From UHGV virus genome UHGV-0114643: a DNA stretch of 33,753 nucleotides; one strand, 5' to 3'. The translations under genes were made by a program, and so were the position numbers. Positions 5,864 through 19,270 of the stretch are shown here, piece by piece. Every line of letters starts with the position of its first letter. Position 1 is the stretch's first letter. Origin of the DNA: a virus. Under the pieces are notes generated by a model that did no database searches, was not told where the DNA came from, and saw only the letters and a list, made by a program, of their open reading frames with translations.

Positions 5864-6078
5864 TGTTCAATCCTCTTTAATCGTGCATTCCACTCTCTGT
5901 CAATCATTCTCTGGAATGTCTTACCTCTTGGAGTAACATTCTTAAGTGACTCTTCAGTACATACCAGAATATCACCTCTGGCAAACTTGCCATAGCACTG
6001 TTTAGTCTTCTTAGCTCGTCTGTACTGCTCAGAAACAGAGAGCTTCCAGTATTCACCTAGAGTTGTAAACTTTTTCAT
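5860..6078 (-). CDS. hypothetical protein, 72 aa
   Basis: ORF in track; ATGA overlaps with both neighbours. Confidence 0.5.
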   Translation of the reverse strand: MKKFTTLGEYWKLSVSEQYRRAKKTKQCYGKFARGDILVCTEESLKNVTPRGKTFQRMIDREWNARLKRIEQ

Positions 6079-11905: not shown

Positions 11906-12277
11906 ATGACGAAACGAACAAACAAAGGCCAATTCAAGAAAGGTCAATCTGGTAACCCATCAGGTAGACCCAAAGGCTCACGTAACAAGAGTTCACTGGT
12001 CAAGGCACAGTTGACTATTGATAACTCAGCAGAGTATGCTGCAAAGCTGTTTGAGGCCATTGTCACACGTAATGCTGACAAGCTTGCAGAGTTCGGATTA
12101 AAGGCTGAAGATGTAAACTTAAAGTCCATGATGGAAGCTGGTAAAACCATCATGACTCACTCAGCAGGTGAGATGAAAGCAATTGCAGCAGATAGTAAGA
12201 AACCTTCTGAAAATGGAGGTCAGGGAGCACAGGAGAACAAACCAACGTTCTCTGCTGTAGCAACTCTGAAAAAATAA
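11906..12277 (+). CDS. hypothetical basic protein, 123 aa, with N-terminal KGQSGNPSGRPKGSRNK motif
   Basis: ORF in track; ATG with AGAGGTG upstream. Confidence 0.55.
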   Translation: MTKRTNKGQFKKGQSGNPSGRPKGSRNKSSLVKAQLTIDNSAEYAAKLFEAIVTRNADKLAEFGLKAEDVNLKSMMEAGKTIMTHSAGEMKAIAADSKKPSENGGQGAQENKPTFSAVATLKK

Positions 12278-12287
12278 TAAAAAGGTG

Positions 12288-12316
12288 TTGACAGGTTCTA
12301 AATCAAACGTTAGAGT
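12288..12316 (+). promoter_or_regulatory. sigma70-like promoter (TTGACA-N17-TAGAGT)
   Basis: Exact -35 hexamer, 17-nt spacer, 4/6 match at -10; 40 nt upstream of ATG 12356. Confidence 0.45.
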
Positions 12317-12355: not shown

Positions 12356-13771
12356 ATGAGCGAATTATTTAAACACTCGCATCTACATGCAGGTTTAACT
12401 GAAAACGGTGCTGTTAACCACACATCTTCAATGTCTGCACTGGTAGATTTCTACAAAGCTGCTGGTTCAAGCAGAACAAATGTAGAAGTTCTTCCAAACT
12501 TGTTTTACAAGGCAATGCGAGAAGATATTGATGTAGCAGTTCGAATCCTGTTACATATGCGAGATGCACGAGAAGGTATGGGTGAGCGTAAAGCGTTCCG
12601 TTATACTCTTACTAAAGCAATCTCTGACGGGATTCTTGATGAGTTTCAAGTATTACGTATCATGGACAAGATTTCTGATTTAGGTCGTTATGACGACTTT
12701 AAAATCTTTGTTGGTACACGTTACGAAACAGATGCTTTCAAGCATTTAGAATCGGCACTGTTAGACCCTGCAACATCGGCTCTGGCAGCAAAATGGTTAC
12801 CACGAGTAAAATCACGACACATGCGTTTTGTTCGTCGTTTCTGTAAGTTTGCAAATCTTTCAGAGAAGCAGTATCGAGTTCTTCTGTCAGCACTGTCTGA
12901 TACTGTTGAACAAAAGATTTCAGCAAACGAGTTTGGAGAGATTGATTACAGCAAGCTTCCTTCACTGGCTGCTGCACGTTATCAAAAACTCTTCAGTCGT
13001 AAAGATGGTGAGCGTTATGCAGCATACGTTACAGCACTGACTAAAGGTGAGACAAAGATTAATGCTGGTGCAGTCTACCCTTATGACATTACAAAGTCAG
13101 TCGGTTACGGTAATGCAACCGTTGCAAATGAGCAGTGGAAAGCTTTACCAAACTGGATGAAAGAGGGTGAAAACATTCTGTGCATGGCAGATGTATCTTC
13201 ATCTATGACTTGGGAGCGACATGGTTCTGTTACAGCGCTAGATATTGGTGTATCTTTAGCCCTGTACGTTTCAGAACGTAATACAGGTTGCTTTAAAGAT
13301 GAATTGATGGTTTACTCTAGCCGACCTCACTTCATCACATTGAGTGGTGATTTGCAGACTCGCTTACGACAAGTAAAGAGTCATGTAGAATATGGTTCAA
13401 CTGACCTACAAGCTGCTTTTGCAAGAATCCTTGAGATTGGTGTTAAAAACAACTTGACTCAGAAAGAGATGCCTAGTAAGCTTATCATCTTCTCTGATAT
13501 GCAGTTCAATCAGGTTGATGGAGCAGATGGTCGTACTAACTTTGAAGCAATTCAAGAAAAGTACAAGAAAGCTGGATATGAGATGCCACAACTGGTATTC
13601 TGGTACTTAGCAAACCGTAATGGTACTTGCGAAGTGTCTGTAAAGGATAACGGTGTAGCAATGGTATCTGGTTTCTCTCCAGCCACTTTAAAAGCTTTGC
13701 TTGGTGGTGAGAAGTTTGACCCTATCAGCGTAATGCTCAAAGCAGTAATGATTGAACGCTACGATTGGTAA
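12356..13771 (+). CDS. vWA-domain protein, 471 aa (helical N-terminal region + C-terminal von Willebrand A domain); possibly Ro60/TROVE-like or DUF2828-like
   Basis: MIDAS-like D-x-S-x-S in LCMADVSSSMTWE and beta-strand-like LIIFSDMQF seen in translation; fold family is inferred, not searched. Confidence 0.6.
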   Translation: MSELFKHSHLHAGLTENGAVNHTSSMSALVDFYKAAGSSRTNVEVLPNLFYKAMREDIDVAVRILLHMRDAREGMGERKAFRYTLTKAISDGILDEFQVLRIMDKISDLGRYDDFKIFVGTRYETDAFKHLESALLDPATSALAAKWLPRVKSRHMRFVRRFCKFANLSEKQYRVLLSALSDTVEQKISANEFGEIDYSKLPSLAAARYQKLFSRKDGERYAAYVTALTKGETKINAGAVYPYDITKSVGYGNATVANEQWKALPNWMKEGENILCMADVSSSMTWERHGSVTALDIGVSLALYVSERNTGCFKDELMVYSSRPHFITLSGDLQTRLRQVKSHVEYGSTDLQAAFARILEIGVKNNLTQKEMPSKLIIFSDMQFNQVDGADGRTNFEAIQEKYKKAGYEMPQLVFWYLANRNGTCEVSVKDNGVAMVSGFSPATLKALLGGEKFDPISVMLKAVMIERYDW

Positions 13772-13789
13772 AAAGTTTTAAAAAGGGTA

Positions 13790-13818
13790 TTGACAAAGTG
13801 TTTAATACCCTTTAATAT
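13790..13818 (+). promoter_or_regulatory. sigma70-like promoter (TTGACA-N17-TAATAT), overlapped by a 9-bp inverted repeat (AAGGGTATT / AATACCCTT)
   Basis: Consensus hexamers with canonical spacing, read directly. Confidence 0.5.
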
Positions 13819-13879
13819 GTTCTACATAGAAACGAAAAAGAAGTTTTCTGAAATAAATCAAATTATTTTAAAAAACCTC

Positions 13880-13909
13880 TTGACAGACACTAAAAAATAG
13901 TGTTATAGT
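13880..13909 (+). promoter_or_regulatory. sigma70-like promoter (TTGACA-N18-TATAGT) about 30 nt upstream of the first tRNA
   Basis: Consensus hexamers read directly. Confidence 0.5.
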
Positions 13910-13936
13910 TGTTACATAGGTTGTTAAAAAGATTAT

Positions 13937-14016
13937 CTCCGTTTAGCTCAGTTTGGTTTAGCAGCACTTGCTTTGGGAGCAAGGGGTCGAGGGTTCAAAT
14001 CCTTCAACGGAGACCA
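13937..14016 (+). tRNA. tRNA-Pro (anticodon TGG), CCA encoded
   Basis: 7-bp acceptor stem CTCCGTT/AACGGAG, T-arm GAGGG-TTCAAAT-CCTTC, anticodon loop TTTGGGA. Confidence 0.8.
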
Positions 14017-14022
14017 AATTAT

Positions 14023-14100
14023 ATTCCCGTAGACAAATTAGGTAAAGTCAACACCCTTTCAAGGTGTGGTTTGAGGGTTCAAGTCCCTTCGGGAATGCCA
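14023..14100 (+). tRNA. tRNA-Glu (anticodon TTC), CCA encoded
   Basis: Perfect acceptor stem ATTCCCG/CGGGAAT, T-arm, anticodon loop CTTTCAA. Confidence 0.85.
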
Positions 14101-14107
14101 GTTTTGA

Positions 14108-14177
14108 CAGAAGACCAATTACAGCAAACAAACTTTTCAATTTCGCGCATAGAAATCCAAAAAAGATTTGGTCTGGT
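14108..14177 (+). repeat. inter-tRNA element a (CAGAAGACC ... GGTCTGGT family); candidate small structured RNA
   Basis: Shares 5' (CAGAAGACC-N-ACAGCAA) and 3' (GGTCTGGT) ends with three other spacers; terminal 5-bp helix AGACC/GGTCT. Confidence 0.6.
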
Positions 14178-14187
14178 CATTAAGAAT

Positions 14188-14264
14188 TGCGGGTATAGAG
14201 AAAGGGTGTCTCACATGTCTCATTAGCATGTTATCGGTAGGTTCGACTCCTACACCCGCCTCCA
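14188..14264 (+). tRNA. tRNA with CAT anticodon (Met, fMet or Ile2), atypical (U1:C72 mismatch, U at position 37)
   Basis: Acceptor TGCGGGT/ACCCGCC, T-arm GTAGG-TTCGACT-CCTAC, anticodon arm CATGT-CTCATTA-GCATG, CCA encoded. Confidence 0.55.
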
Positions 14265-14270
14265 AATTTA

Positions 14271-14336
14271 CAGAAGACCGTTTACAGCAAACACTTAAAA
14301 TTTTTTATAGGAAAAAATGAAAAGATACGGTCTGGT
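14271..14336 (+). repeat. inter-tRNA element b (CAGAAGACC ... GGTCTGGT family)
   Basis: Direct repeat of the element termini. Confidence 0.6.
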
Positions 14337-14347
14337 AATACTAATAT

Positions 14348-14424
14348 GGTTAGGAAGCACATAAGGCATGTGCGGTCGGCTGTTAACCGAATGGTACAGG
14401 GTTCGAATCCCTGACTAACCGCCA
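14348..14424 (+). tRNA. tRNA-Asn (anticodon GTT)
   Basis: Acceptor GGTTAGG/ACTAACC, D-stem GCAC/GTGC, anticodon loop CTGTTAA, T-arm CAGGG-TTCGAAT-CCCTG, CCA encoded. Confidence 0.8.
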
Positions 14425-14493
14425 AGATTTGGGAGAGAAGTGATTGCTCACCGATTTGTAAGGTGCAAGTCCTTAGCCTGAATAGAATAAAAT

Positions 14494-14581
14494 GCGTCGT
14501 TATCCCGTAGATGGAAGCGGTGGTGACTGTAAATCACTTGTCATTATGACTCGGTAGGTTCGACTCCTTCACGGCGCACCA
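14494..14581 (+). tRNA. tRNA-Tyr (anticodon GTA), long variable arm
   Basis: Acceptor GCGTCGT/ACGGCGC, anticodon arm GGTGA-CTGTAAA-TCACT, variable-arm hairpin, T-arm, CCA encoded. Confidence 0.8.
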
Positions 14582-14587
14582 AATAAA

Positions 14588-14664
14588 GGTTATGTAGTTT
14601 AACTGGTCAAAATACCTCCCTGTCACGGAGGATGATGAGGGTTCGAATCCCTTCGTAACCGCCA
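14588..14664 (+). tRNA. tRNA-Asp (anticodon GTC)
   Basis: Acceptor GGTTATG/CGTAACC, D-stem GTTT/AAAT, anticodon arm CCTCC-CTGTCAC-GGAGG, T-arm GAGGG-TTCGAAT-CCCTT, CCA encoded. Confidence 0.85.
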
Positions 14665-14725
14665 AATTTGAGAGGGCTTGTTAGCCCCTCCCTTAAAGAG
14701 TTCTTACGAGTATTCTTTAAAGGAG

Positions 14726-14800
14726 CAGAAGACCAAATACAGCAAGCAATTTTAATATTTCAAGCCAATTTAATTTGAAAAATTTAAAACTTGGTCTGGT
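14726..14800 (+). repeat. inter-tRNA element c (CAGAAGACC ... GGTCTGGT family)
   Basis: Direct repeat of the element termini. Confidence 0.6.
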
Positions 14801-14813
14801 TCCAACAATTTTA

Positions 14814-14940
14814 CAGAAGACCGTTTACAGCAAACAATAAACAATCTATTTCTCTGGTAAAGAAAAGGCGAAGGTTCGATTCCTTCACACGTTACGGCGT
14901 GTTGGTGTAATGGAAGCACTTAAGATAAATACGGTCTGGT
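14814..14940 (+). repeat. inter-tRNA element d (127 nt) with internal T-arm mimic (GAAGG-TTCGATT-CCTTC) and D-arm-like hairpin; candidate Y-RNA-like ncRNA
   Basis: Same termini as a-c; tRNA-like motifs present but no acceptor stem pairing, so not a tRNA. Confidence 0.5.
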
Positions 14941-15089
14941 AATCCTCTTTGCAGTGACTTATGGAGCTAATATGTCGTCCCATGAGTGCCGATGAGTTTC
15001 TTGAGCATGATTCTAGATTAGCTTACTAAGAGACAACTCTACAAACCCTTTAGCAAGGTTTGCGTAGGTTACTGCAAAGATGATTTAAT

Positions 15090-15165
15090 GGAAGTGTAGC
15101 AGAATGGTGATGCGGCAGACTTTTAATCTGACAGGCGACGGGTTCGAATCCCTCCACTTCTACCA
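15090..15165 (+). tRNA. tRNA-Lys (anticodon TTT)
   Basis: Acceptor GGAAGTG/CACTTCT, anticodon loop CTTTTAA, T-loop GGGTTCGAATCCC, CCA encoded. Confidence 0.8.
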
Positions 15166-15246
15166 AATTCGCCCCTTAACTGAAGAACACATGCGCGGCT
15201 GGAAACACCCACTCAATCAGTTCTCTACAAAGGGGCAACTTATAAT

Positions 15247-15323
15247 GGTTCAGTCGCAGATAAGGTAATGCAAGGGTTTCATAAGCCCTATGAATGTGGG
15301 TTCGATTCCCACCTGAACCTCCA
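15247..15323 (+). tRNA. tRNA-Met (anticodon CAT; could be initiator or Ile2)
   Basis: Perfect acceptor GGTTCAG/CTGAACC, anticodon arm AGGGT-TTCATAA-GCCCT, T-arm GTGGG-TTCGATT-CCCAC, CCA encoded. Confidence 0.8.
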
Positions 15324-15325
15324 AT

Positions 15326-15400
15326 TGTGGGTTAGCATAAATGGTAATGCAAACGGCTGATAACCGTTAGAAGAGGGTTCGATACCCTCACCTACAACCA
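15326..15400 (+). tRNA. tRNA-Ile (anticodon GAT)
   Basis: Acceptor TGTGGGT/ACCTACA, D-stem GCAT/ATGC, anticodon arm AACGG-CTGATAA-CCGTT, T-arm GAGGG-TTCGATA-CCCTC, CCA encoded. Confidence 0.85.
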
Positions 15401-15414
15401 ATTTCATAAAGTTG

Positions 15415-15443
15415 TTGACATTCAGATGTGACCACTTTAAGAT
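15415..15443 (+). promoter_or_regulatory. internal promoter-like element (TTGACA-N17-TAAGAT) inside the tRNA array
   Basis: Exact -35, 17-nt spacer, 4/6 at -10. Confidence 0.35.
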
Positions 15444-15676
15444 AACCTTAGTTTTCGTTAGCGTAGCGTCTATTTTAAAAACTTAAAAATAAATGCAAAC
15501 GATAATGTTTTTCTGGCAGTAGCTTAATAGGCTAAACACCAGCAGGGTATTCCAACTCCCTGTTAAAGAATTTGGCGTACTAGCCCACGGTATGATTAAT
15601 AAAGTGGGCAATATTCTAAAGAGCATCCCTTAAGGGGCTTGGCTTAAATGCAATGAGTGCTCTTTAAAATATTAAT

Positions 15677-15752
15677 GCTCCGTTAGTCTAAAGGATAGGC
15701 AACTGTCTTCTAAACAGTTCATATATAGGTTCGAGTCCTATACGGAGTGCCA
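15677..15752 (+). tRNA. tRNA-Arg (anticodon TCT)
   Basis: Acceptor GCTCCGT/ACGGAGT, D-stem GTCT/AGGC, anticodon arm ACTGT-CTTCTAA-ACAGT, T-arm ATAGG-TTCGAGT-CCTAT, CCA encoded. Confidence 0.85.
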
Positions 15753-15813
15753 ATTCTAATGGTCAAGACAACACGAGTAAGTTATCTTAGATACGCGTTA
15801 AGAGATAAACGAA

Positions 15814-15881
15814 AGTCGGAAAGTTGCTGAAGGGTAGCTCCCTTCGATAGTAAGTAGGTTCGACTCCTACCTTGACTGCCA
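15814..15881 (+). tRNA. tRNA-like element, probably degenerate or interrupted (canonical T-arm and 3' end with CCA, but no D-arm; a perfect 5' acceptor partner GGTCAAG lies at 15761-15767)
   Basis: T-arm GTAGG-TTCGACT-CCTAC and 3' strand CTTGACT-G-CCA; only 65 nt from the nearest 5' partner, 118 nt from the perfect one. Confidence 0.3.
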
Positions 15882-16046
15882 AATAGTTAGCAGATTACTA
15901 CGACGACCTTTATGGGTCTCCGCATTGACTTGAAAGAGTCAATCTCATAAGGAGGTGGTCTGTATCTCATGTTTTCCAGAACATGTAAATAATCTGAGAA
16001 GAAGCTTGACAGTGTTGAGATAACAGGGTAAGCTTCGAAATATAGT

Positions 16047-16129
16047 ATGGGACGATGTTAAGACACTAAGGCATGTGCGTAAGCCTCCAAAACTTACTCA
16101 AAGGGGTTCGAATCCTCCGTCCCATGCCA
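16047..16129 (+). tRNA. atypical tRNA, candidate tRNA-Trp (CCA inside a 9-nt anticodon loop CCUCCAAAA; D region ~7 nt too long)
   Basis: Perfect acceptor ATGGGAC/GTCCCAT, T-loop GGGGTTCGAATCC, CCA encoded; Trp is the only amino acid otherwise missing from the array. Confidence 0.45.
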
Positions 16130-16142
16130 AAGTCTTATTAGG

Positions 16143-16230
16143 GGTAGGTAGCGGCTAATGGAAGCCAAACTGTCTTGAAAACAGTTGCCATTGTAGAGAT
16201 ACGGTGAGGGTTCGACTCCTTTATCTACCG
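16143..16230 (+). tRNA. tRNA-Ser (anticodon TGA), long variable arm; 3' CCA not encoded (CCT follows)
   Basis: Acceptor GGTAGGT/ATCTACC, anticodon arm ACTGT-CTTGAAA-ACAGT, 20-nt variable arm, T-arm GAGGG-TTCGACT-CCTTT. Confidence 0.75.
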
Positions 16231-16485
16231 CCTAATAAGATTTAAAGCTGAGACTCGCTGTTCGGGCAAGTGTTTCAGGTTTCCTCTTCGTGTATTGGCG
16301 TACACGGCACTGGTAAAACACCTAGTAGGTGTCACGGAGAAGAGATAGTATCAAGCTCTCCAAAGGTTCTAGTCACCGGATTAAACAAGACTATGCAAAG
16401 GCCAATAGGTCTTTTTAGAGAATTGTTAAGATGTTTAATACCATTGTTGCTTTGGTGTCTTAGCAGTTCTCTACAAAGATTTAAT

Positions 16486-16562
16486 GCACCTATAGCCCAA
16501 CTGGAAGAGGCAGCAGACTTAGAATCTGCTCAGTGTGAGTTCGAATCTCTCTAGGTGTACCA
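16486..16562 (+). tRNA. tRNA with Leu anticodon TAG, class-II-like D-arm but short variable loop
   Basis: Acceptor GCACCTA/TAGGTGT, anticodon arm GCAGA-CTTAGAA-TCTGC, discriminator A, CCA encoded. Confidence 0.7.
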
Positions 16563-16569
16563 AATTAAT

Positions 16570-16645
16570 GCAGGTGTAGCAAAATGGTTATGCGGCTGAC
16601 TCTTAATCAGTAAGACGATGGGTTCAATTCCCTCCACCTGTACCA
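16570..16645 (+). tRNA. tRNA-Lys (anticodon CTT)
   Basis: Acceptor GCAGGTG/CACCTGT, anticodon loop CTCTTAA, T-loop GGGTTCAATTCCC, CCA encoded. Confidence 0.8.
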
Positions 16646-16651
16646 AACAAT

Positions 16652-16727
16652 GGGGATGTAGTTTACATGGTTAAAACATAAGTTTTGCAAACTTAAGTAC
16701 AGGGTTCAATTCCCTGCTTCTCCACCA
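16652..16727 (+). tRNA. tRNA-Ala (anticodon TGC) with G3:U70 identity pair
   Basis: Acceptor GGGGATG/CTTCTCC, D-stem GTTT/AAAC, anticodon arm TAAGT-TTTGCAA-ACTTA, T-arm CAGGG-TTCAATT-CCCTG, CCA encoded. Confidence 0.85.
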
Positions 16728-16733
16728 ATTAGT

Positions 16734-16808
16734 GCATCCATAGTTTAAACGGGAAAATTACAGTCTTCCAAACTGAGGTTGAGGGTTCGATTCCCTCTGG
16801 ATGCTCCA
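16734..16808 (+). tRNA. tRNA-Gly (anticodon TCC)
   Basis: Perfect acceptor GCATCCA/TGGATGC, anticodon loop CTTCCAA, T-arm GAGGG-TTCGATT-CCCTC, CCA encoded. Confidence 0.85.
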
Positions 16809-16814
16809 AATAAT

Positions 16815-16890
16815 GCTCTTATCGTATAATTGGCTATTACGGTTGCCTTGTAAGCAACTTATCAGGGTTCGAATCCTTGTGGGAGCACCA
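16815..16890 (+). tRNA. tRNA-Thr (anticodon TGT)
   Basis: Acceptor GCTCTTA/TGGGAGC, anticodon arm GTTGC-CTTGTAA-GCAAC, T-arm CAGGG-TTCGAAT-CCTTG, CCA encoded. Confidence 0.85.
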
Positions 16891-16987
16891 ATTTTGAGGT
16901 CAAGTGAAAGACCGCTTGAGTCAACTGAAGACCGTAACAAATTCCACGGAGTTGAGTTAGCGGCACAGCTTCAGACCTCTTTTCAAA

Positions 16988-17062
16988 GCTCGCTTAGTTT
17001 ATATGGTAAAGCCCCATCCTTACAAGTTGGTGAAGAAGGTTCAAGTCCTTCAGCGAGTACCA
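16988..17062 (+). tRNA. tRNA-Val (anticodon TAC)
   Basis: Acceptor GCTCGCT/AGCGAGT, D-stem GTTT/AAGC, anticodon loop CTTACAA, T-arm GAAGG-TTCAAGT-CCTTC, CCA encoded. Confidence 0.75.
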
Positions 17063-17063
17063 A

Positions 17064-17141
17064 GTTCCAGTATCCCAATTGGCAGAGGATGCAAGCTCAA
17101 ACCTTGTATTAGTGACGGTTCGAATCCGTCTTGGAACACCA
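17064..17141 (+). tRNA. tRNA with Leu anticodon CAA, class-II-like D-arm (3-bp stem, CAATTGGCAGA loop) but short variable loop
   Basis: Acceptor GTTCCAG/TTGGAAC, anticodon arm GCAAG-CTCAAAC-CTTGT, T-arm GACGG-TTCGAAT-CCGTC, discriminator A, CCA encoded. Confidence 0.7.
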
Positions 17142-17156
17142 AATTAGGAGATTCCT

Positions 17157-17369
17157 ATGAAGCCTTATGGTAGACATGGTAAAGTTGAAATTGCAAGTTG
17201 TGGTTGCTGTGCTTCTCACGATGGTGAAGAAGATTACTACAAGTGGCGTACAGACCATCGTAAACGCTTTCTCAGAAGAGATAAGAAGAAAGCTAGACAG
17301 GAATCTCGAAAGAATATTGCAGAATTAGTTCAAATGGATAGAACAGCAATCTACGAAGTTGTTTGTTAG
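17157..17369 (+). CDS. small basic Cys-containing hypothetical protein, 70 aa; last ~17 codons overlap tRNA-Arg
   Basis: ATG with AGGAGA 7 nt upstream; ORF in track; overlap makes the true extent uncertain. Confidence 0.35.
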   Translation: MKPYGRHGKVEIASCGCCASHDGEEDYYKWRTDHRKRFLRRDKKKARQESRKNIAELVQMDRTAIYEVVC

Positions 17370-17395
17370 GGGTTCGAATCCCTTATTCTGCACCA
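17319..17395 (+). tRNA. tRNA-Arg (anticodon ACG)
   Basis: Perfect acceptor GCAGAAT/ATTCTGC, D-stem GTTC/GAAC, anticodon arm GCAAT-CTACGAA-GTTGT, T-arm AGGGG-TTCGAAT-CCCTT, CCA encoded. Confidence 0.8.
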
Positions 17396-17413
17396 ATTTT
17401 AGAAGGTAATTAT

Positions 17414-17641
17414 ATGCGTAAACTCATTATTGAAAGGCATAAAGATGCTGACAAGATTGAAACAACACAAGTTGGGGACACTGACTTCATTCTTGTAGGT
17501 TGGAAATGTGACCCAATAGCAGCTATGAAGGTTGTTCATGGTTTTGCAGGAATTGAATTTAATCAAATCATATTTGAAACGCTATTACCAGAAAATCAGG
17601 ATACGTGTAATAACGCATATGTCCTGACAAGAGTTCGTTAG
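17414..17641 (+). CDS. hypothetical protein, 75 aa (paralogue A: MRKLIIERH ... DTCNNAYVLTRVR); start moved to the ATG with a proper RBS
   Basis: About 60% identical to 17686..17913; AGAAGG upstream of ATG. Confidence 0.5.
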   Translation: MRKLIIERHKDADKIETTQVGDTDFILVGWKCDPIAAMKVVHGFAGIEFNQIIFETLLPENQDTCNNAYVLTRVR

Positions 17642-17667
17642 GGGTTCGAATCCCTTATTCTGCACCA
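17633..17667 (+). pseudogene. tRNA 3' fragment (T-arm + acceptor 3' strand + CCA), identical to the 3' end of tRNA-Arg(ACG); duplication scar
   Basis: 30 of 31 nt identical to 17365-17395; no complementary 5' acceptor strand or D-arm upstream. Confidence 0.55.
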
Positions 17668-17685
17668 AATTTAAAAGGGTAACTT

Positions 17686-17913
17686 ATGTTTAAACTCATA
17701 GTTGAAAAACACCCAGAAGATGACAAGCTTGAAACAGGGAGATTTGGAGATACTTTCTTTATCAGAGTTGGCTGGAAAGCTGACCCATTAGAAGTTAGAA
17801 AGATTGTCTACAACTTTGCTGGTTTGGAATTAAAGCAAGTCATCTTTGAAACAATGTTGCCAGAAAATAAAGATACATGCAATAACGCATATATTCTTAC
17901 AAGAGTTAGTTAG
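17686..17913 (+). CDS. hypothetical protein, 75 aa (paralogue B: MFKLIVEKH ... DTCNNAYILTRVS)
   Basis: ORF in track; AAGGG upstream; paralogous to 17414..17641. Confidence 0.5.
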   Translation: MFKLIVEKHPEDDKLETGRFGDTFFIRVGWKADPLEVRKIVYNFAGLELKQVIFETMLPENKDTCNNAYILTRVS

Positions 17914-17987
17914 GGGATTAGTTTACAAGGTTAAAACCTCGGTCTTTGAAATCGAAGAAGTTGGTTCAATTCCAACATCCCCCGCCA
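17912..17987 (+). tRNA. tRNA-Gln (anticodon TTG); starts inside the stop codon of the preceding ORF
   Basis: Acceptor AGGGGAT/ATCCCCC (A1:C72), D-stem GTTT/AAAC, anticodon arm TCGGT-CTTTGAA-ATCGA, T-arm GTTGG-TTCAATT-CCAAC, CCA encoded. Confidence 0.8.
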
Positions 17988-17989
17988 AT

Positions 17990-18068
17990 GCTCCATTACT
18001 CCAATTGGCAGAGAGGCCAGACTTAAAATCTGTGTTATGTATCGGTTCGAATCCGATATGGAGTACCA
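17990..18068 (+). tRNA. tRNA with Leu anticodon TAA, class-II-like D-arm but short variable loop
   Basis: Perfect acceptor GCTCCAT/ATGGAGT, D-arm CTC-CAATTGGCA-GAG, anticodon arm CCAGA-CTTAAAA-TCTGT, T-arm ATCGG-TTCGAAT-CCGAT, discriminator A, CCA encoded. Confidence 0.7.
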
Positions 18069-18074
18069 AATATT

Positions 18075-18150
18075 AGCAGTGTAGCATAACTGGCAATGCT
18101 CCAGCCTCTGAAGCTGAATGATTAAGGTTCAAATCCTTACGCTGCTGCCA
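18075..18150 (+). tRNA. tRNA-Gln (anticodon CTG)
   Basis: Acceptor AGCAGTG/CGCTGCT, D-stem GCAT/ATGC, anticodon loop CTCTGAA, T-arm TAAGG-TTCAAAT-CCTTA, CCA encoded. Confidence 0.8.
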
Positions 18151-18181
18151 CTTCTAAGGGTTCTTACGAGAGTCCTTAAAT

Positions 18182-18255
18182 GTGGCCTTATCATAAATGG
18201 ACAATGACCCATGCTGTGAACATGGTCTATACGGGTTCGATTCCCGTAGGTCACC
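18182..18255 (+). tRNA. tRNA-His (anticodon GTG); 3' tail reads C-CCCCA rather than N-CCA and no obvious G-1
   Basis: Acceptor GTGGCCT/AGGTCAC, perfect D-stem TCAT/ATGA, anticodon arm CCATG-CTGTGAA-CATGG, T-arm ACGGG-TTCGATT-CCCGT. Confidence 0.7.
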
Positions 18256-18267
18256 CCCCAATTCAAT

Positions 18268-18343
18268 AGCTCAATTAGCTTATATGGTTAAAGCGCGTGT
18301 CTGAAAAACATGAGAACAGGGTTCAAATCCCGATGGGCTACCA
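18268..18343 (+). tRNA. tRNA-Phe (anticodon GAA), acceptor/T-stem register ambiguous
   Basis: D-stem GCTT/AAGC, anticodon arm CGTGT-CTGAAAA-ACATG, T-loop GGGTTCAAATCCC, 3' ...ACCA. Confidence 0.6.
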
Positions 18344-18359
18344 ATTTTATAGGTGCATA

Positions 18360-19094
18360 ATGAAAGAGATGACAGAACAAGGTAAAGAGATTTTTGGTCT
18401 CCTTAAATCTGGTAACGGGTTCTCTAACCCTCTTATTACTGGTGCAGCAGTTCTTGGTGGTACTGTAGCTGCCTCTCAATCATTAGTTAACTCAATTAGT
18501 TCTGTAACAGACCCAGCTACACAACAGATTTTAGTTGCTGCTGGACTGACAACAGCCTTATTAGGAAGCTTCACAACAAGCCTTGGAAGGACAACTTCAA
18601 CGACAAGTACACTCACTGAGTATGGACAAAAGTCTGTAGATGAGTTTTCACAACGTATGCAAGTAGCTAAGGGTTACTCTAATGTTATGGGAGCAGCAGG
18701 TGAACAGGTTGGATGTACACCGTTTAGTGGTATCATGGGCGTAGCTACCGAGTACGGTAATAAAGCGATGGATTTGATTAATACCTCCATAGACGCTGTA
18801 AATAGCGTTCTAAGCGATTTGCAAGATGCAATCGACCAAGGACTAGATACAATCTCTGAACTCGCTACACAGGCCGTTACAGCGATTAATGAGGGTATTG
18901 CAAAGATTACTGCATATGCTAATGAAGTAACTCAGATGATTGCAGATGAAGCAGCACTGATTGCAGAATACCTGAAAACAAATATTAATGGTTTCCTTGC
19001 GAATGTTCTACCAAGCTGGTTTGATGATTCATGTAAAACTGGTGTGATTGACACTATCGCAACTCCAGAGATGAAAGAAGCTCTGAACAAATAA
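18360..19094 (+). CDS. hypothetical protein (~244 aa), Ala/Thr/Ser/Gly-rich with hydrophobic N-terminal segment; start moved downstream of the tRNA
   Basis: Track ORF began inside tRNA-Phe; ATG at 18360 has AGGTG upstream. Confidence 0.5.
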   Translation: MKEMTEQGKEIFGLLKSGNGFSNPLITGAAVLGGTVAASQSLVNSISSVTDPATQQILVAAGLTTALLGSFTTSLGRTTSTTSTLTEYGQKSVDEFSQRMQVAKGYSNVMGAAGEQVGCTPFSGIMGVATEYGNKAMDLINTSIDAVNSVLSDLQDAIDQGLDTISELATQAVTAINEGIAKITAYANEVTQMIADEAALIAEYLKTNINGFLANVLPSWFDDSCKTGVIDTIATPEMKEALNK

Positions 19095-19095
19095 C

Positions 19096-19188
19096 GGAAG
19101 ATTAACCCTAAAAGGTAAGGGAGCAGTTTGCTAAACTGCCAGTAACCGAGAAATCGGCGTACCAGTTCAAGTCTGGTATCTTCCTCCA
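19096..19188 (+). tRNA. tRNA-Ser (anticodon GCT), long variable arm
   Basis: Perfect acceptor GGAAGAT/ATCTTCC, 3-bp D-stem, anticodon arm GCAGT-TTGCTAA-ACTGC, T-arm ACCAG-TTCAAGT-CTGGT, CCA encoded. Confidence 0.8.
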
Positions 19189-19194
19189 AATTAT

Positions 19195-19270
19195 GTGTCG
19201 GTGTCAGAAATGGTTATGTCCCTGTCTGCAAAACAGGTTTATGAGGGTTCGAGTCCCTTCCGATACTCCA
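19195..19270 (+). tRNA. tRNA-Cys (anticodon GCA)
   Basis: Acceptor GTGTCGG/CCGATAC, anticodon arm CCTGT-CTGCAAA-ACAGG, T-arm GAGGG-TTCGAGT-CCCTT, CCA encoded. Confidence 0.8.

Follow-up and report, generated by a model that had tools for sequence, protein, structure and literature searches.

A Ro60-like phage protein and a candidate family of partner RNAs encoded within a tRNA array

The 33,753-nucleotide stretch of virus genome UHGV-0114643 analysed here (hereafter the window) carries a gene for a 471-residue Ro60-like protein and, 3′ of it on the same strand, an array of 25 tRNAs whose spacers hold four related RNA elements. We propose that this locus probably encodes a phage ribonucleoprotein of the Ro60/Y-RNA type, composed of a divergent DUF2828 + DUF7788 protein and a conserved RNA family, with expression and binding as predicted properties. 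Particles of Ro60 and Y RNA have been described in animals, in some bacteria and in a few phages whose TROVE proteins are recognisable. The locus described here combines, according to structural modelling, a sequence-divergent Ro60-fold family with its own conserved RNA family, which is absent from Rfam 15, and the recurrence of this protein–RNA pairing in phages of very different bacteria points to a widespread, putative viral RNA–protein particle. The region of the locus is 98–99% identical to Felix-O1-group Shigella and Citrobacter phages (Ounavirinae; Henu11, Sf17 and KMM4) and 80–90% identical to more than 200 Felixounavirus genomes. The coordinates of the features are collected in Table 1.

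Results

Structured RNA elements in the tRNA array

A reading made earlier from the sequence alone (the sequence-only reading) had noticed four related elements with a terminal helix in the spacers of the tRNA array, and this observation is borne out: the pattern AGAAGACCNWWTACAGCAARCAA occurs on the + strand at 14109, 14272, 14727 and 14815, whereas none is expected from 100 shuffles, and every match has a complementary 3′ arm. The anatomy of the four elements is the same: an outer helix of 4–5 bp is separated by an asymmetric internal loop, with 5′ AGA facing 3′ G, from an inner helix of 7 bp that has the form AGACCNN/NNGGUCU; the 5′ strand is followed immediately by an unpaired (U/A)UACAGCAA, and a variable body completes each element. 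In all four, the terminal helix is closed by A-U/G-C, with the single-stranded UUACAGCAA immediately 3′ of its 5′ strand and CUG at the 3′ side. Elements 1 and 2 each fill an inter-tRNA slot with 3–9 nt to spare.

The RNA structure is conserved with covariation. The inner helix shows compensatory changes between copies (CCGU/ACGG versus CCAA/UUGG), and the outer helix covaries between phages, with UUAC/GUAA of element 2 changed to UUGC/GCAA and GGAGC/GUUCC of element 3 changed to GAGC/GCUC. The architecture of Y RNAs is reproduced in that an outer and an inner helix, both covarying, are split by the 5′ AGA / 3′ G loop. Such compensatory changes are found in related as well as very distant phages, in which the elements are physically linked to the gene; the absence of conserved structure in relatives, named by the sequence-only reading as an outcome that would speak against its proposal, is therefore not what the comparison returned. 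At gathering thresholds, Rfam 15 yields tRNAs alone in the window and has no family for the four elements. The motif also occurs inside the Ro60-like gene (window 12948–12954; position 6043 of locus L016), where GAT TAC AGC AAA encodes D-Y-S-K of the conserved protein motif IDYSKLPS; this in-gene ACAGCAA seems to be a chance product of the coding sequence rather than an RNA element.

Strand-specific linkage of RNA and gene across phages

The distribution of the motif was followed in 80 viral-contig loci with relatives of the protein, comprising 15 Ounavirinae loci and 65 loci at 39–45% protein identity. In these loci and the window together, ACAGCAA occurs 191 times on the strand of the gene and 44 times on the opposite strand. 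About 100 distinct intergenic copies adjacent to the gene share the context 5′ A-G-N5-(N)U-NCAGCAA...N5′-C-U-G, while their stems vary freely (for example GGUUCC/GGAACC, GGUAGA/UCUACC, GAGUGU/ACACUC and GGACGA/UCGUCC). An alignment of 33 diverse short elements contains double changes at five of the six helix pairs, and from it we built the covariance model R1. Searched against both strands of 986 kb of phage loci, R1 gave 108 matches at E ≤ 1, every one of which lies on the gene strand, most of them less than about 1.5 kb from the gene. Its matches within the window are the four elements only (38.3 bits for element 1, 44.9 bits for element 2 and 46.2 bits for element 3). This result supports, in silico, the suggestion of the sequence-only reading that the protein gene is accompanied by its RNA partners.

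R1 was also run with filters off on lineages that were absent from its training and whose proteins are 29–37% identical. It placed elements immediately beside the gene in seven of these lineages, namely in Listeria phage LMSP-25 (three elements; 33.3, 33.1 and 24.1 bits), Enterococcus phage Porthos (one; 33.1 bits), Campylobacter phage CP81 (one; 31.2 bits), Mycobacteriophage Gabriela (two, 28.9 and 25.9 bits, in a 370-nt gap after the 'Ro-like' gene), Staphylococcus phage S-CoN_Ph8 (three; 34.8, 32.7 and 21.4 bits), Bacillus phage MrDarsey (two; 26.4 and 19.1 bits) and Fusobacterium phage FNU2 (one; 25.9 bits). In phiN3, R1 recovered a weak 5′-untranslated region (5′-UTR) copy. The strand-specific linkage of RNA and gene thus extends across phages of Proteobacteria, Firmicutes, Actinobacteria, Campylobacterota and Fusobacteria. 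Of 18 distant loci sampled, 9 have the element although no tRNA lies within 6 kb; the RNA therefore goes with the gene, and the tRNA array, although often nearby, can be dispensed with.

Distant loci typically consist of the gene followed by a short form of the RNA (about 60 nt), a long form (about 255 nt) that shares its 5′ signature, and a terminator. The long form is a conserved structured RNA found after the short element in many distant loci (for example L021 7855–8110, L030 7474–7735, L035 5587–5845 and L041 7525–7770); it carries the 5′ signature GGAUAGGU-ACAGCAA ... CUAUCCCGU, ends at an intrinsic terminator and matches no Rfam family. The 5′ UTR of the Ro60-like gene itself carries a minimal hairpin of 34–41 nt, made of a stem and ACAGCAA, in L016 (5966–6005), L018 (2328–2363), L023 (5946–5986), L026 (5947–5980) and phiN3 (L089 2395–2432). 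In L016, a contig of a KVP40-like Vibrio phage, the 3′ strand of the hairpin overlaps the start codon ATG.

Genome annotations either omit the RNAs or place small, probably spurious open reading frames over them. Small 'hypothetical protein' coding sequences cover elements in phage Bas63 (bas63_0137/0138, L081 22749–23023), CP81 (ORF140, L084 2361–2498) and S-CoN_Ph8 (CoNPh8_CDS0150/0149, L086 3983–4330), and these coding sequences are probably spurious calls on non-coding RNA genes. Among the neighbouring genes, an RNA ligase (GAP32_175, L088 1004–2269) lies directly upstream of the Ro60-like gene in phage GAP32, an RtcB 'tRNA-splicing ligase' (L083 5302–6455) lies 1.3 kb downstream of it in Listeria phage LMSP-25, and an Appr-1-p processing (macro) protein (L089 1154–1717) lies upstream of it in phiN3. 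Clustering of neighbour genes in the 65 metagenomic loci returned DnaJ-like, Nudix-like and hypothetical proteins, with no family common across lineages.

The Ro60-like protein

The C-terminal von Willebrand factor A (vWA) signature that the sequence-only reading had recognised in the 471-residue open reading frame is confirmed. It comprises D-x-S-x-S as DVSSSM followed by SDMQF, and the residues of the metal ion-dependent adhesion site (MIDAS; D279, S281, S283, T349, S380 and D381) are invariant in 24 homologs with 42–87% identity to the window protein. In a confident AlphaFold2 (AF2) model (pLDDT 88.6, pTM 0.89), the N-terminal ~265 residues are all-helical, in agreement with the helical-looking domain of about 270 residues noted before. 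A Foldseek comparison of the model with the PDB returned Ro60 as each of the top nine matches (from Thermus phage phiLo, Xenopus and human; E 2e-8 to 3e-6, TM 0.55–0.63). The full-length fold match is to Ro60 alone, so the proposal of a phage Ro-like protein is supported and the N-terminal domain was not assigned to a non-TROVE fold. The modelled protein has the Ro60 fold, a helical-repeat ring followed by a vWA domain with the MIDAS motif.

At the level of sequence, the protein passes the curated Pfam thresholds of both DUF2828 (94.7 bits, cut-off 29) and DUF7788 (150.3 bits, cut-off 27.1) and is matched over its full length by PHROG 850 'RNA-binding protein' (E 6.3e-178, residues 1–471), while no NCBIfam model matches it. 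Judged by its model, it is a member of a sequence-divergent Ro60-fold family characterised by DUF2828 and DUF7788. This family comprises 2478 clusters at E < 1e-3 in the protein collection searched and occurs in 710 of 50,697 phage records, some of which annotate it as 'Ro-like RNA binding protein'. The phage hosts in these records include Escherichia, Mycobacterium, Salmonella, Vibrio, Listeria, Staphylococcus, Campylobacter, Enterococcus, Bacillus and Aeromonas; DUF2828 proteins are also present in plants and in mimivirus-like sequences.

A tRNA-like body in the long element

Element 4, the long form in the window, had been described with a T-arm mimic and a D-arm-like hairpin, both of which stand; its end, placed at 14940, lies two bases further at 14942, and an anticodon-like and an acceptor-like hairpin are added to its description. 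The acceptor-like hairpin contains three compensatory pairs with three different compensating sequences in an RNAalifold analysis of 10 Ounavirinae. Against the Rfam tRNA model (RF00005), element 4 scores 28.8 bits, below the threshold of 29 and with mostly non-canonical 'acceptor' pairs in the alignment, and ARAGORN does not call it a tRNA. It has the components of the YrlA-subtype module, i.e. a T-arm, a closed acceptor-like stem and a D-arm. A long element homologous to it, from a distant phage contig (L017 5767–5877), has the same order of T-arm, hairpin and D-arm and gives a full-length match to Rfam YrlA (38.2 bits, E 2e-6; threshold 69). By its predicted folding, element 4 is a carrier of a YrlA-type permuted tRNA-like module.

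Table 1. Positions of the Ro60-like gene, promoter-like sites, tRNA array and RNA elements (window coordinates, except where locus L081 of phage Bas63 is given)
Feature	Position	Strand	Description
Promoter-like site 5′ of the Ro60-like gene	12288..12316	+	TTGACA-17-TAGAGT; consensus scan alone
Ro60-like protein gene, 471 aa	12356..13771	+	N-terminal helical (HEAT-like) ring domain, C-terminal vWA, MIDAS intact
Promoter-like site 1	13790..13818	+	Head of tRNA/ncRNA array; TTGACA-17-TAATAT; consensus scan
Promoter-like site 2	13880..13909	+	TTGACA-18-TG-TATAGT, extended -10; matches 11/12
tRNA array, 25 tRNAs	13937..19270	+	3′ of the Ro60-like gene
Element 1, short	14105..14179	+	Between tRNA-Glu and tRNA-Met; outer UGAC/GUCA, inner AGACCAA/UUGGUCU, 5′ AGA / 3′ G loop, single-stranded UUACAGCAA
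Element 2, short	14268..14338	+	Between tRNA-Met and tRNA-Asn; outer UUAC/GUAA, inner AGACCGU/ACGGUCU, single-stranded UUACAGCAA
Element 3, short	14722..14803	+	Outer GGAGC/GUUCC, inner AGACCAA/UUGGUCU, single-stranded AUACAGCAA
Element 4, long	14811..14942	+	Same terminal helices and UUACAGCAA; encloses tRNA-like body
Element 4, anticodon-like hairpin	14849-14865	+	
Element 4, T-arm	14870-14886	+	Perfect; GAAGG-UUCGAUU-CCUUC
Element 4, acceptor-like hairpin	14887-14902	+	Loop-closed; between T and D arms
Element 4, D-arm-like hairpin	14904-14920	+	
Bas63 elements	L081 22072-22141, 22239-22299, 22694-22764, 22786-~22910		Two lie under CDS bas63_0137 and bas63_0138

Discussion

Based on the modelled protein and the conserved RNA module, we propose the following hypothetical course of events. 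The Ro60-like gene would be transcribed from its own promoter, and transcripts of the tRNA array that start at the strong promoter-like sites at 13790 and 13880 would include the four RNAs. These sites correspond to the two TTGACA-N17/18 promoters that the sequence-only reading had placed before the array and which we retain as promoter-like sequences; the total count of such sites in the region does not exceed that expected from shuffling. Since elements 1 and 2 lie 3–9 nt from the flanking tRNAs, tRNA end-processing enzymes would release them as discrete RNAs of ~60–75 nt, while elements 3 and 4 would be released as RNAs of ~80 and ~130 nt. The protein ring may then bind the invariant module, in which the terminal-helix base, with its A-U and G-C closing pairs and 3′ UG, adjoins single-stranded NCAGCAA; this module is simple enough for direct binding tests. 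The variable part, an A-rich loop in the short elements and the permuted tRNA-like body in element 4, may tether or gate the protein towards host RNA-processing or tRNA-handling factors. During infection, the resulting particle would survey or protect RNA (probably tRNA) and contribute to counter-defence. The RNA ligase and RtcB genes beside the Ro60-like gene in GAP32 and the Listeria phage are compatible with such a role.

Other explanations were weighed against a ribonucleoprotein of the Ro60/Y-RNA type. The protein or another factor could bind the stem and NCAGCAA on transcripts, so that the elements would be cis-acting operators that mediate autoregulation or control the tRNA operon, with no stable trans-acting partner RNAs. 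The minimal 5′-UTR copies of several phages, one of which overlaps the ATG with its 3′ strand, suggest cis regulation (translational autoregulation) in those phages, and an operator role is plausible for them. It is less so for the four elaborate copies in the window, which lie in the tRNA operon downstream of the gene and behind separate promoter-like sites and bear conserved bodies including the tRNA-like module; in many phages, moreover, tandem sets are followed by a terminator. Elaborate bodies, tandem sets and separate promoter-like sites fit released RNAs, and roles in cis and in trans are not mutually exclusive. As an account of the system in which operators replace partner RNAs altogether, we regard this explanation as unlikely. 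A slightly lower probability is assigned to the elements being independent small RNAs that are merely syntenic with the Ro60-like gene and whose single-stranded ACAGCAA either base-pairs with a target as a seed or sequesters a host protein as a sponge. This would fit the predicted unpaired state of the motif, the recurrence of AGCAA-like repeats in the loops of some family members and the binding of the look-alike Dictyostelium Class I RNAs to the RNA recognition motif (RRM) protein CIBP. The motif is, however, kept across hosts of five bacterial phyla, which makes a host-specific target unlikely, and only the Ro60-like gene accompanies the elements throughout, invariably on their strand, with no other neighbouring gene family common to the lineages. 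That the elements are by-products of the tRNA array, such as degenerate tRNA remnants, processing spacers or repeated filler without function, might be suspected from the tRNA-sized slots that they occupy between tRNAs and from the score of element 4 as a tRNA. Yet the helices covary, the motif is kept from Ounavirinae to phages of Gram-positive hosts, and elements stand beside the gene in loci devoid of tRNAs within 6 kb. The R1 linkage, the tRNA-free loci and the untrained lineages contradict this explanation, which we consider largely refuted and the least probable of all.

Several results weigh against the proposed Ro60/Y-RNA-type particle, among them the 5′-UTR copies discussed above. In the protein, the TROVE profile (Pfam PF05731) finds no match at E ≤ 1; neither phmmer nor a 24-sequence profile searched against PDB sequences found Ro60. 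The relationship inferred from the model is visible by fold comparison only and not by sequence methods. For the RNAs, the members of the 33-element alignment were chosen by requiring the stem, so that its 100% pairing is partly circular, and a 7-bp stem arises by chance at 13–20% of control motifs; we have placed weight on the covariance-model search and the untrained lineages rather than on simple stem statistics. At default filters, R1 gives a match at E < 0.01 in only 33 of the 65 distant metagenomic loci, and in GAP32 it finds no element within 2.5 kb of the gene. The covariance-model search with Y_RNA (RF00019) and YrlA (RF02553), suggested along with the sequence-only reading, returned no match on the four elements at E ≤ 10; the window elements are 'Y-RNA-like' by architecture and not members of the Y_RNA or YrlA families. 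Finally, the protein of phage Bas63 that corresponds to the window protein, gp130, counters the Ppl defence on its own, from a plasmid or inserted in T7 (PMC11482910). Because gp130 alone suffices, the RNAs are unnecessary for the anti-Ppl phenotype.

Bas63, a Felixounavirus, encodes gp130 with 83% identity to the 471-residue protein and in identical synteny. A preprint on PhageMaP from 2024 (PMC11482910) reported gp130 to be structurally Ro60-like and to counter Ppl, and guessed that some of the tRNA genes downstream of it were 'possibly Y RNAs'. That work left the partner RNAs unidentified; the candidates proposed here are spacer elements and not the annotated tRNAs. The Ro60 likeness of the protein is thus already known from the preprint and from genome annotations, whereas we came across no account of the partner RNA family or of how widely it occurs among phage lineages. 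In the literature searched (DUF2828, Ro-like phage proteins and the motif) the RNA family is undescribed, the motif string having matched only primer noise. Given the anti-Ppl activity of the Bas63 ortholog, the RNAs provide a handle on counter-defence and on phage tRNA handling.

Canonical pairs of Ro60 and Y RNA are known in bacteria and in phages with annotated TROVE proteins (Chen 2014; phiLo; jumbo phages). The bacterial Ro60 protein Rsr, which is found with YrlA/YrlB or Yrn1 (rsr-yrlBA-rtcBA in Salmonella; Rsr-Y RNA-PNPase in D. radiodurans), has the same ring and vWA/MIDAS fold as the modelled phage protein. Its RNAs are likewise encoded beside the gene and in the same orientation, mostly as multiple copies with one short and one long form, and RNA ligase, RtcB and tRNA genes are frequent neighbours in both cases. 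The 5′ and 3′ ends of bacterial Y RNAs also form a terminal helix interrupted by an internal loop, and the long RNA resembles YrlA in the order of T-arm, closed acceptor-like hairpin and D-arm. In contrast to Rsr, the phage protein has no detectable TROVE sequence signature, and its RNAs remain below the Rfam threshold for YrlA (no match in the window; 38 versus 69 bits for L017). Their conserved module also differs, being the AG...CUG helix base with single-stranded NCAGCAA, and in this phage the RNAs sit inside an array of 25 tRNAs. Thermus phage phiLo provides a further example of a phage-encoded Ro60 fold with two adjacent Y-like RNAs, Yrl1 and Yrl2 (PMC12135203; PDB 9KOP and 9L5Y). However, its Ro60 is a recognisable TROVE protein, and its RNAs were identified via a CGAA motif instead of NCAGCAA.

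A resemblance to the Class I RNAs of dictyostelids emerged from Rfam at relaxed thresholds. Class I RNA (RF01414) is the best non-tRNA match for three of the four elements, with full-length alignments at 25.7 bits (element 2), 21.3 bits (element 1) and 17.6 bits, all below the threshold of 41.5; a distant phage element in L021 reaches 28.2 bits, likewise below it. The likeness is specific: D. discoideum Class I RNAs have the form GUUGAC-CUUACAGCAA-(variable, A-rich)-GUCAAC-UG (sequences of the Kjellin 2021 supplement, PMC7919456), and the phage consensus is (A)GNNNNN-UUACAGCAA-(variable, A-rich)-NNNNNC-UG. Both are RNAs of ~45–65 nt with a terminal helix of 6 bp, G being its first base and C-UG its end, followed immediately 3′ of the 5′ strand by an unpaired (C)CUUACAGCAA in Class I RNAs and its counterpart in the phage elements, and both have a variable A-rich loop, many clustered copies and a few long variants. 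Of the unpaired 11-nt Class I motif CCUUACAGCAA, the phage elements have 9 of 11 bases (UUACAGCAA), with the spacing offset by 1 nt. A descriptor derived from the phage elements is satisfied by 25 of 34 D. discoideum Class I RNAs and by none of 20,000 shuffles, and a phage-only sequence hidden Markov model ranks 30 of the 34 with or above the best of 20,000 shuffles; these 34 RNAs are paralogs that amount to a few independent observations, and the likeness fits homology or convergence alike. DdR-66 and DdR-67 (Kjellin 2021 supplement 19) parallel the short and long forms of the phage RNAs.

Class I RNAs differ in being separate eukaryotic genes with a DUSE promoter ~60 nt upstream and in their restriction to Dictyostelia, to which they are unique in the published view, whereas the phage elements are embedded in a tRNA operon with sigma-70-type promoter-like sites. 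The sole proven Class I binder in Dictyostelium is CIBP, which was recovered in a DdR-21 pull-down together with GuaB, NdkC and the uncharacterised DDB_G0281243. We tentatively raise the possibility, which we consider doubtful at present, that phage and Class I RNAs form one family of cognate ligands for DUF2828-type Ro60-like proteins and that Dictyostelia acquired the pair horizontally. If this were true, DDB_G0281243 would be predicted to be a DUF2828/DUF7788 protein, and an abundant, developmentally regulated RNA class that has long been an orphan would gain a molecular partner and a testable explanation.

Other features of the window

Immediately 5′ of the Ro60-like gene lies an open reading frame for a 123-residue DUF5681 protein (11906–12277, + strand; E 1e-13). 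It was considered as a third component of the system and rejected, as its conservation is limited to Ounavirinae and it is not co-conserved with the gene elsewhere. Within the array, positions 14496–14576 (+) probably encode a tRNA-Tyr with GUA anticodon and a long variable arm, which ARAGORN misses and Rfam scores at 22.8 bits, below threshold; the orthologous position is an annotated tRNA-Tyr in Bas63 and other relatives. Further downstream, positions 15340–15527 (+), which begin within tRNA-Ile, give a full-length Rfam match to permuted tmRNA (34.7 bits, below the threshold of 47; E 2e-4), and positions 15444–15581 match alpha_tmRNA at 20.3 bits; ARAGORN calls no tmRNA here.

Two further structured segments adjoin the elements. 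The 149-nt spacer between element 4 and tRNA-Lys (14941–15089, +) is predicted to form a long closed fold (-48.6 kcal/mol, z -5.1, equalled by none of 200 shuffles); it is without the NCAGCAA signature and is confined to a Mooglevirus-like subset (L001–L004). Just 5′ of element 3, two adjacent hairpins at 14662–14726 (+; z -3.4) are 91–98% identical across Ounavirinae including Bas63 and could be a processing or terminator-like signal.

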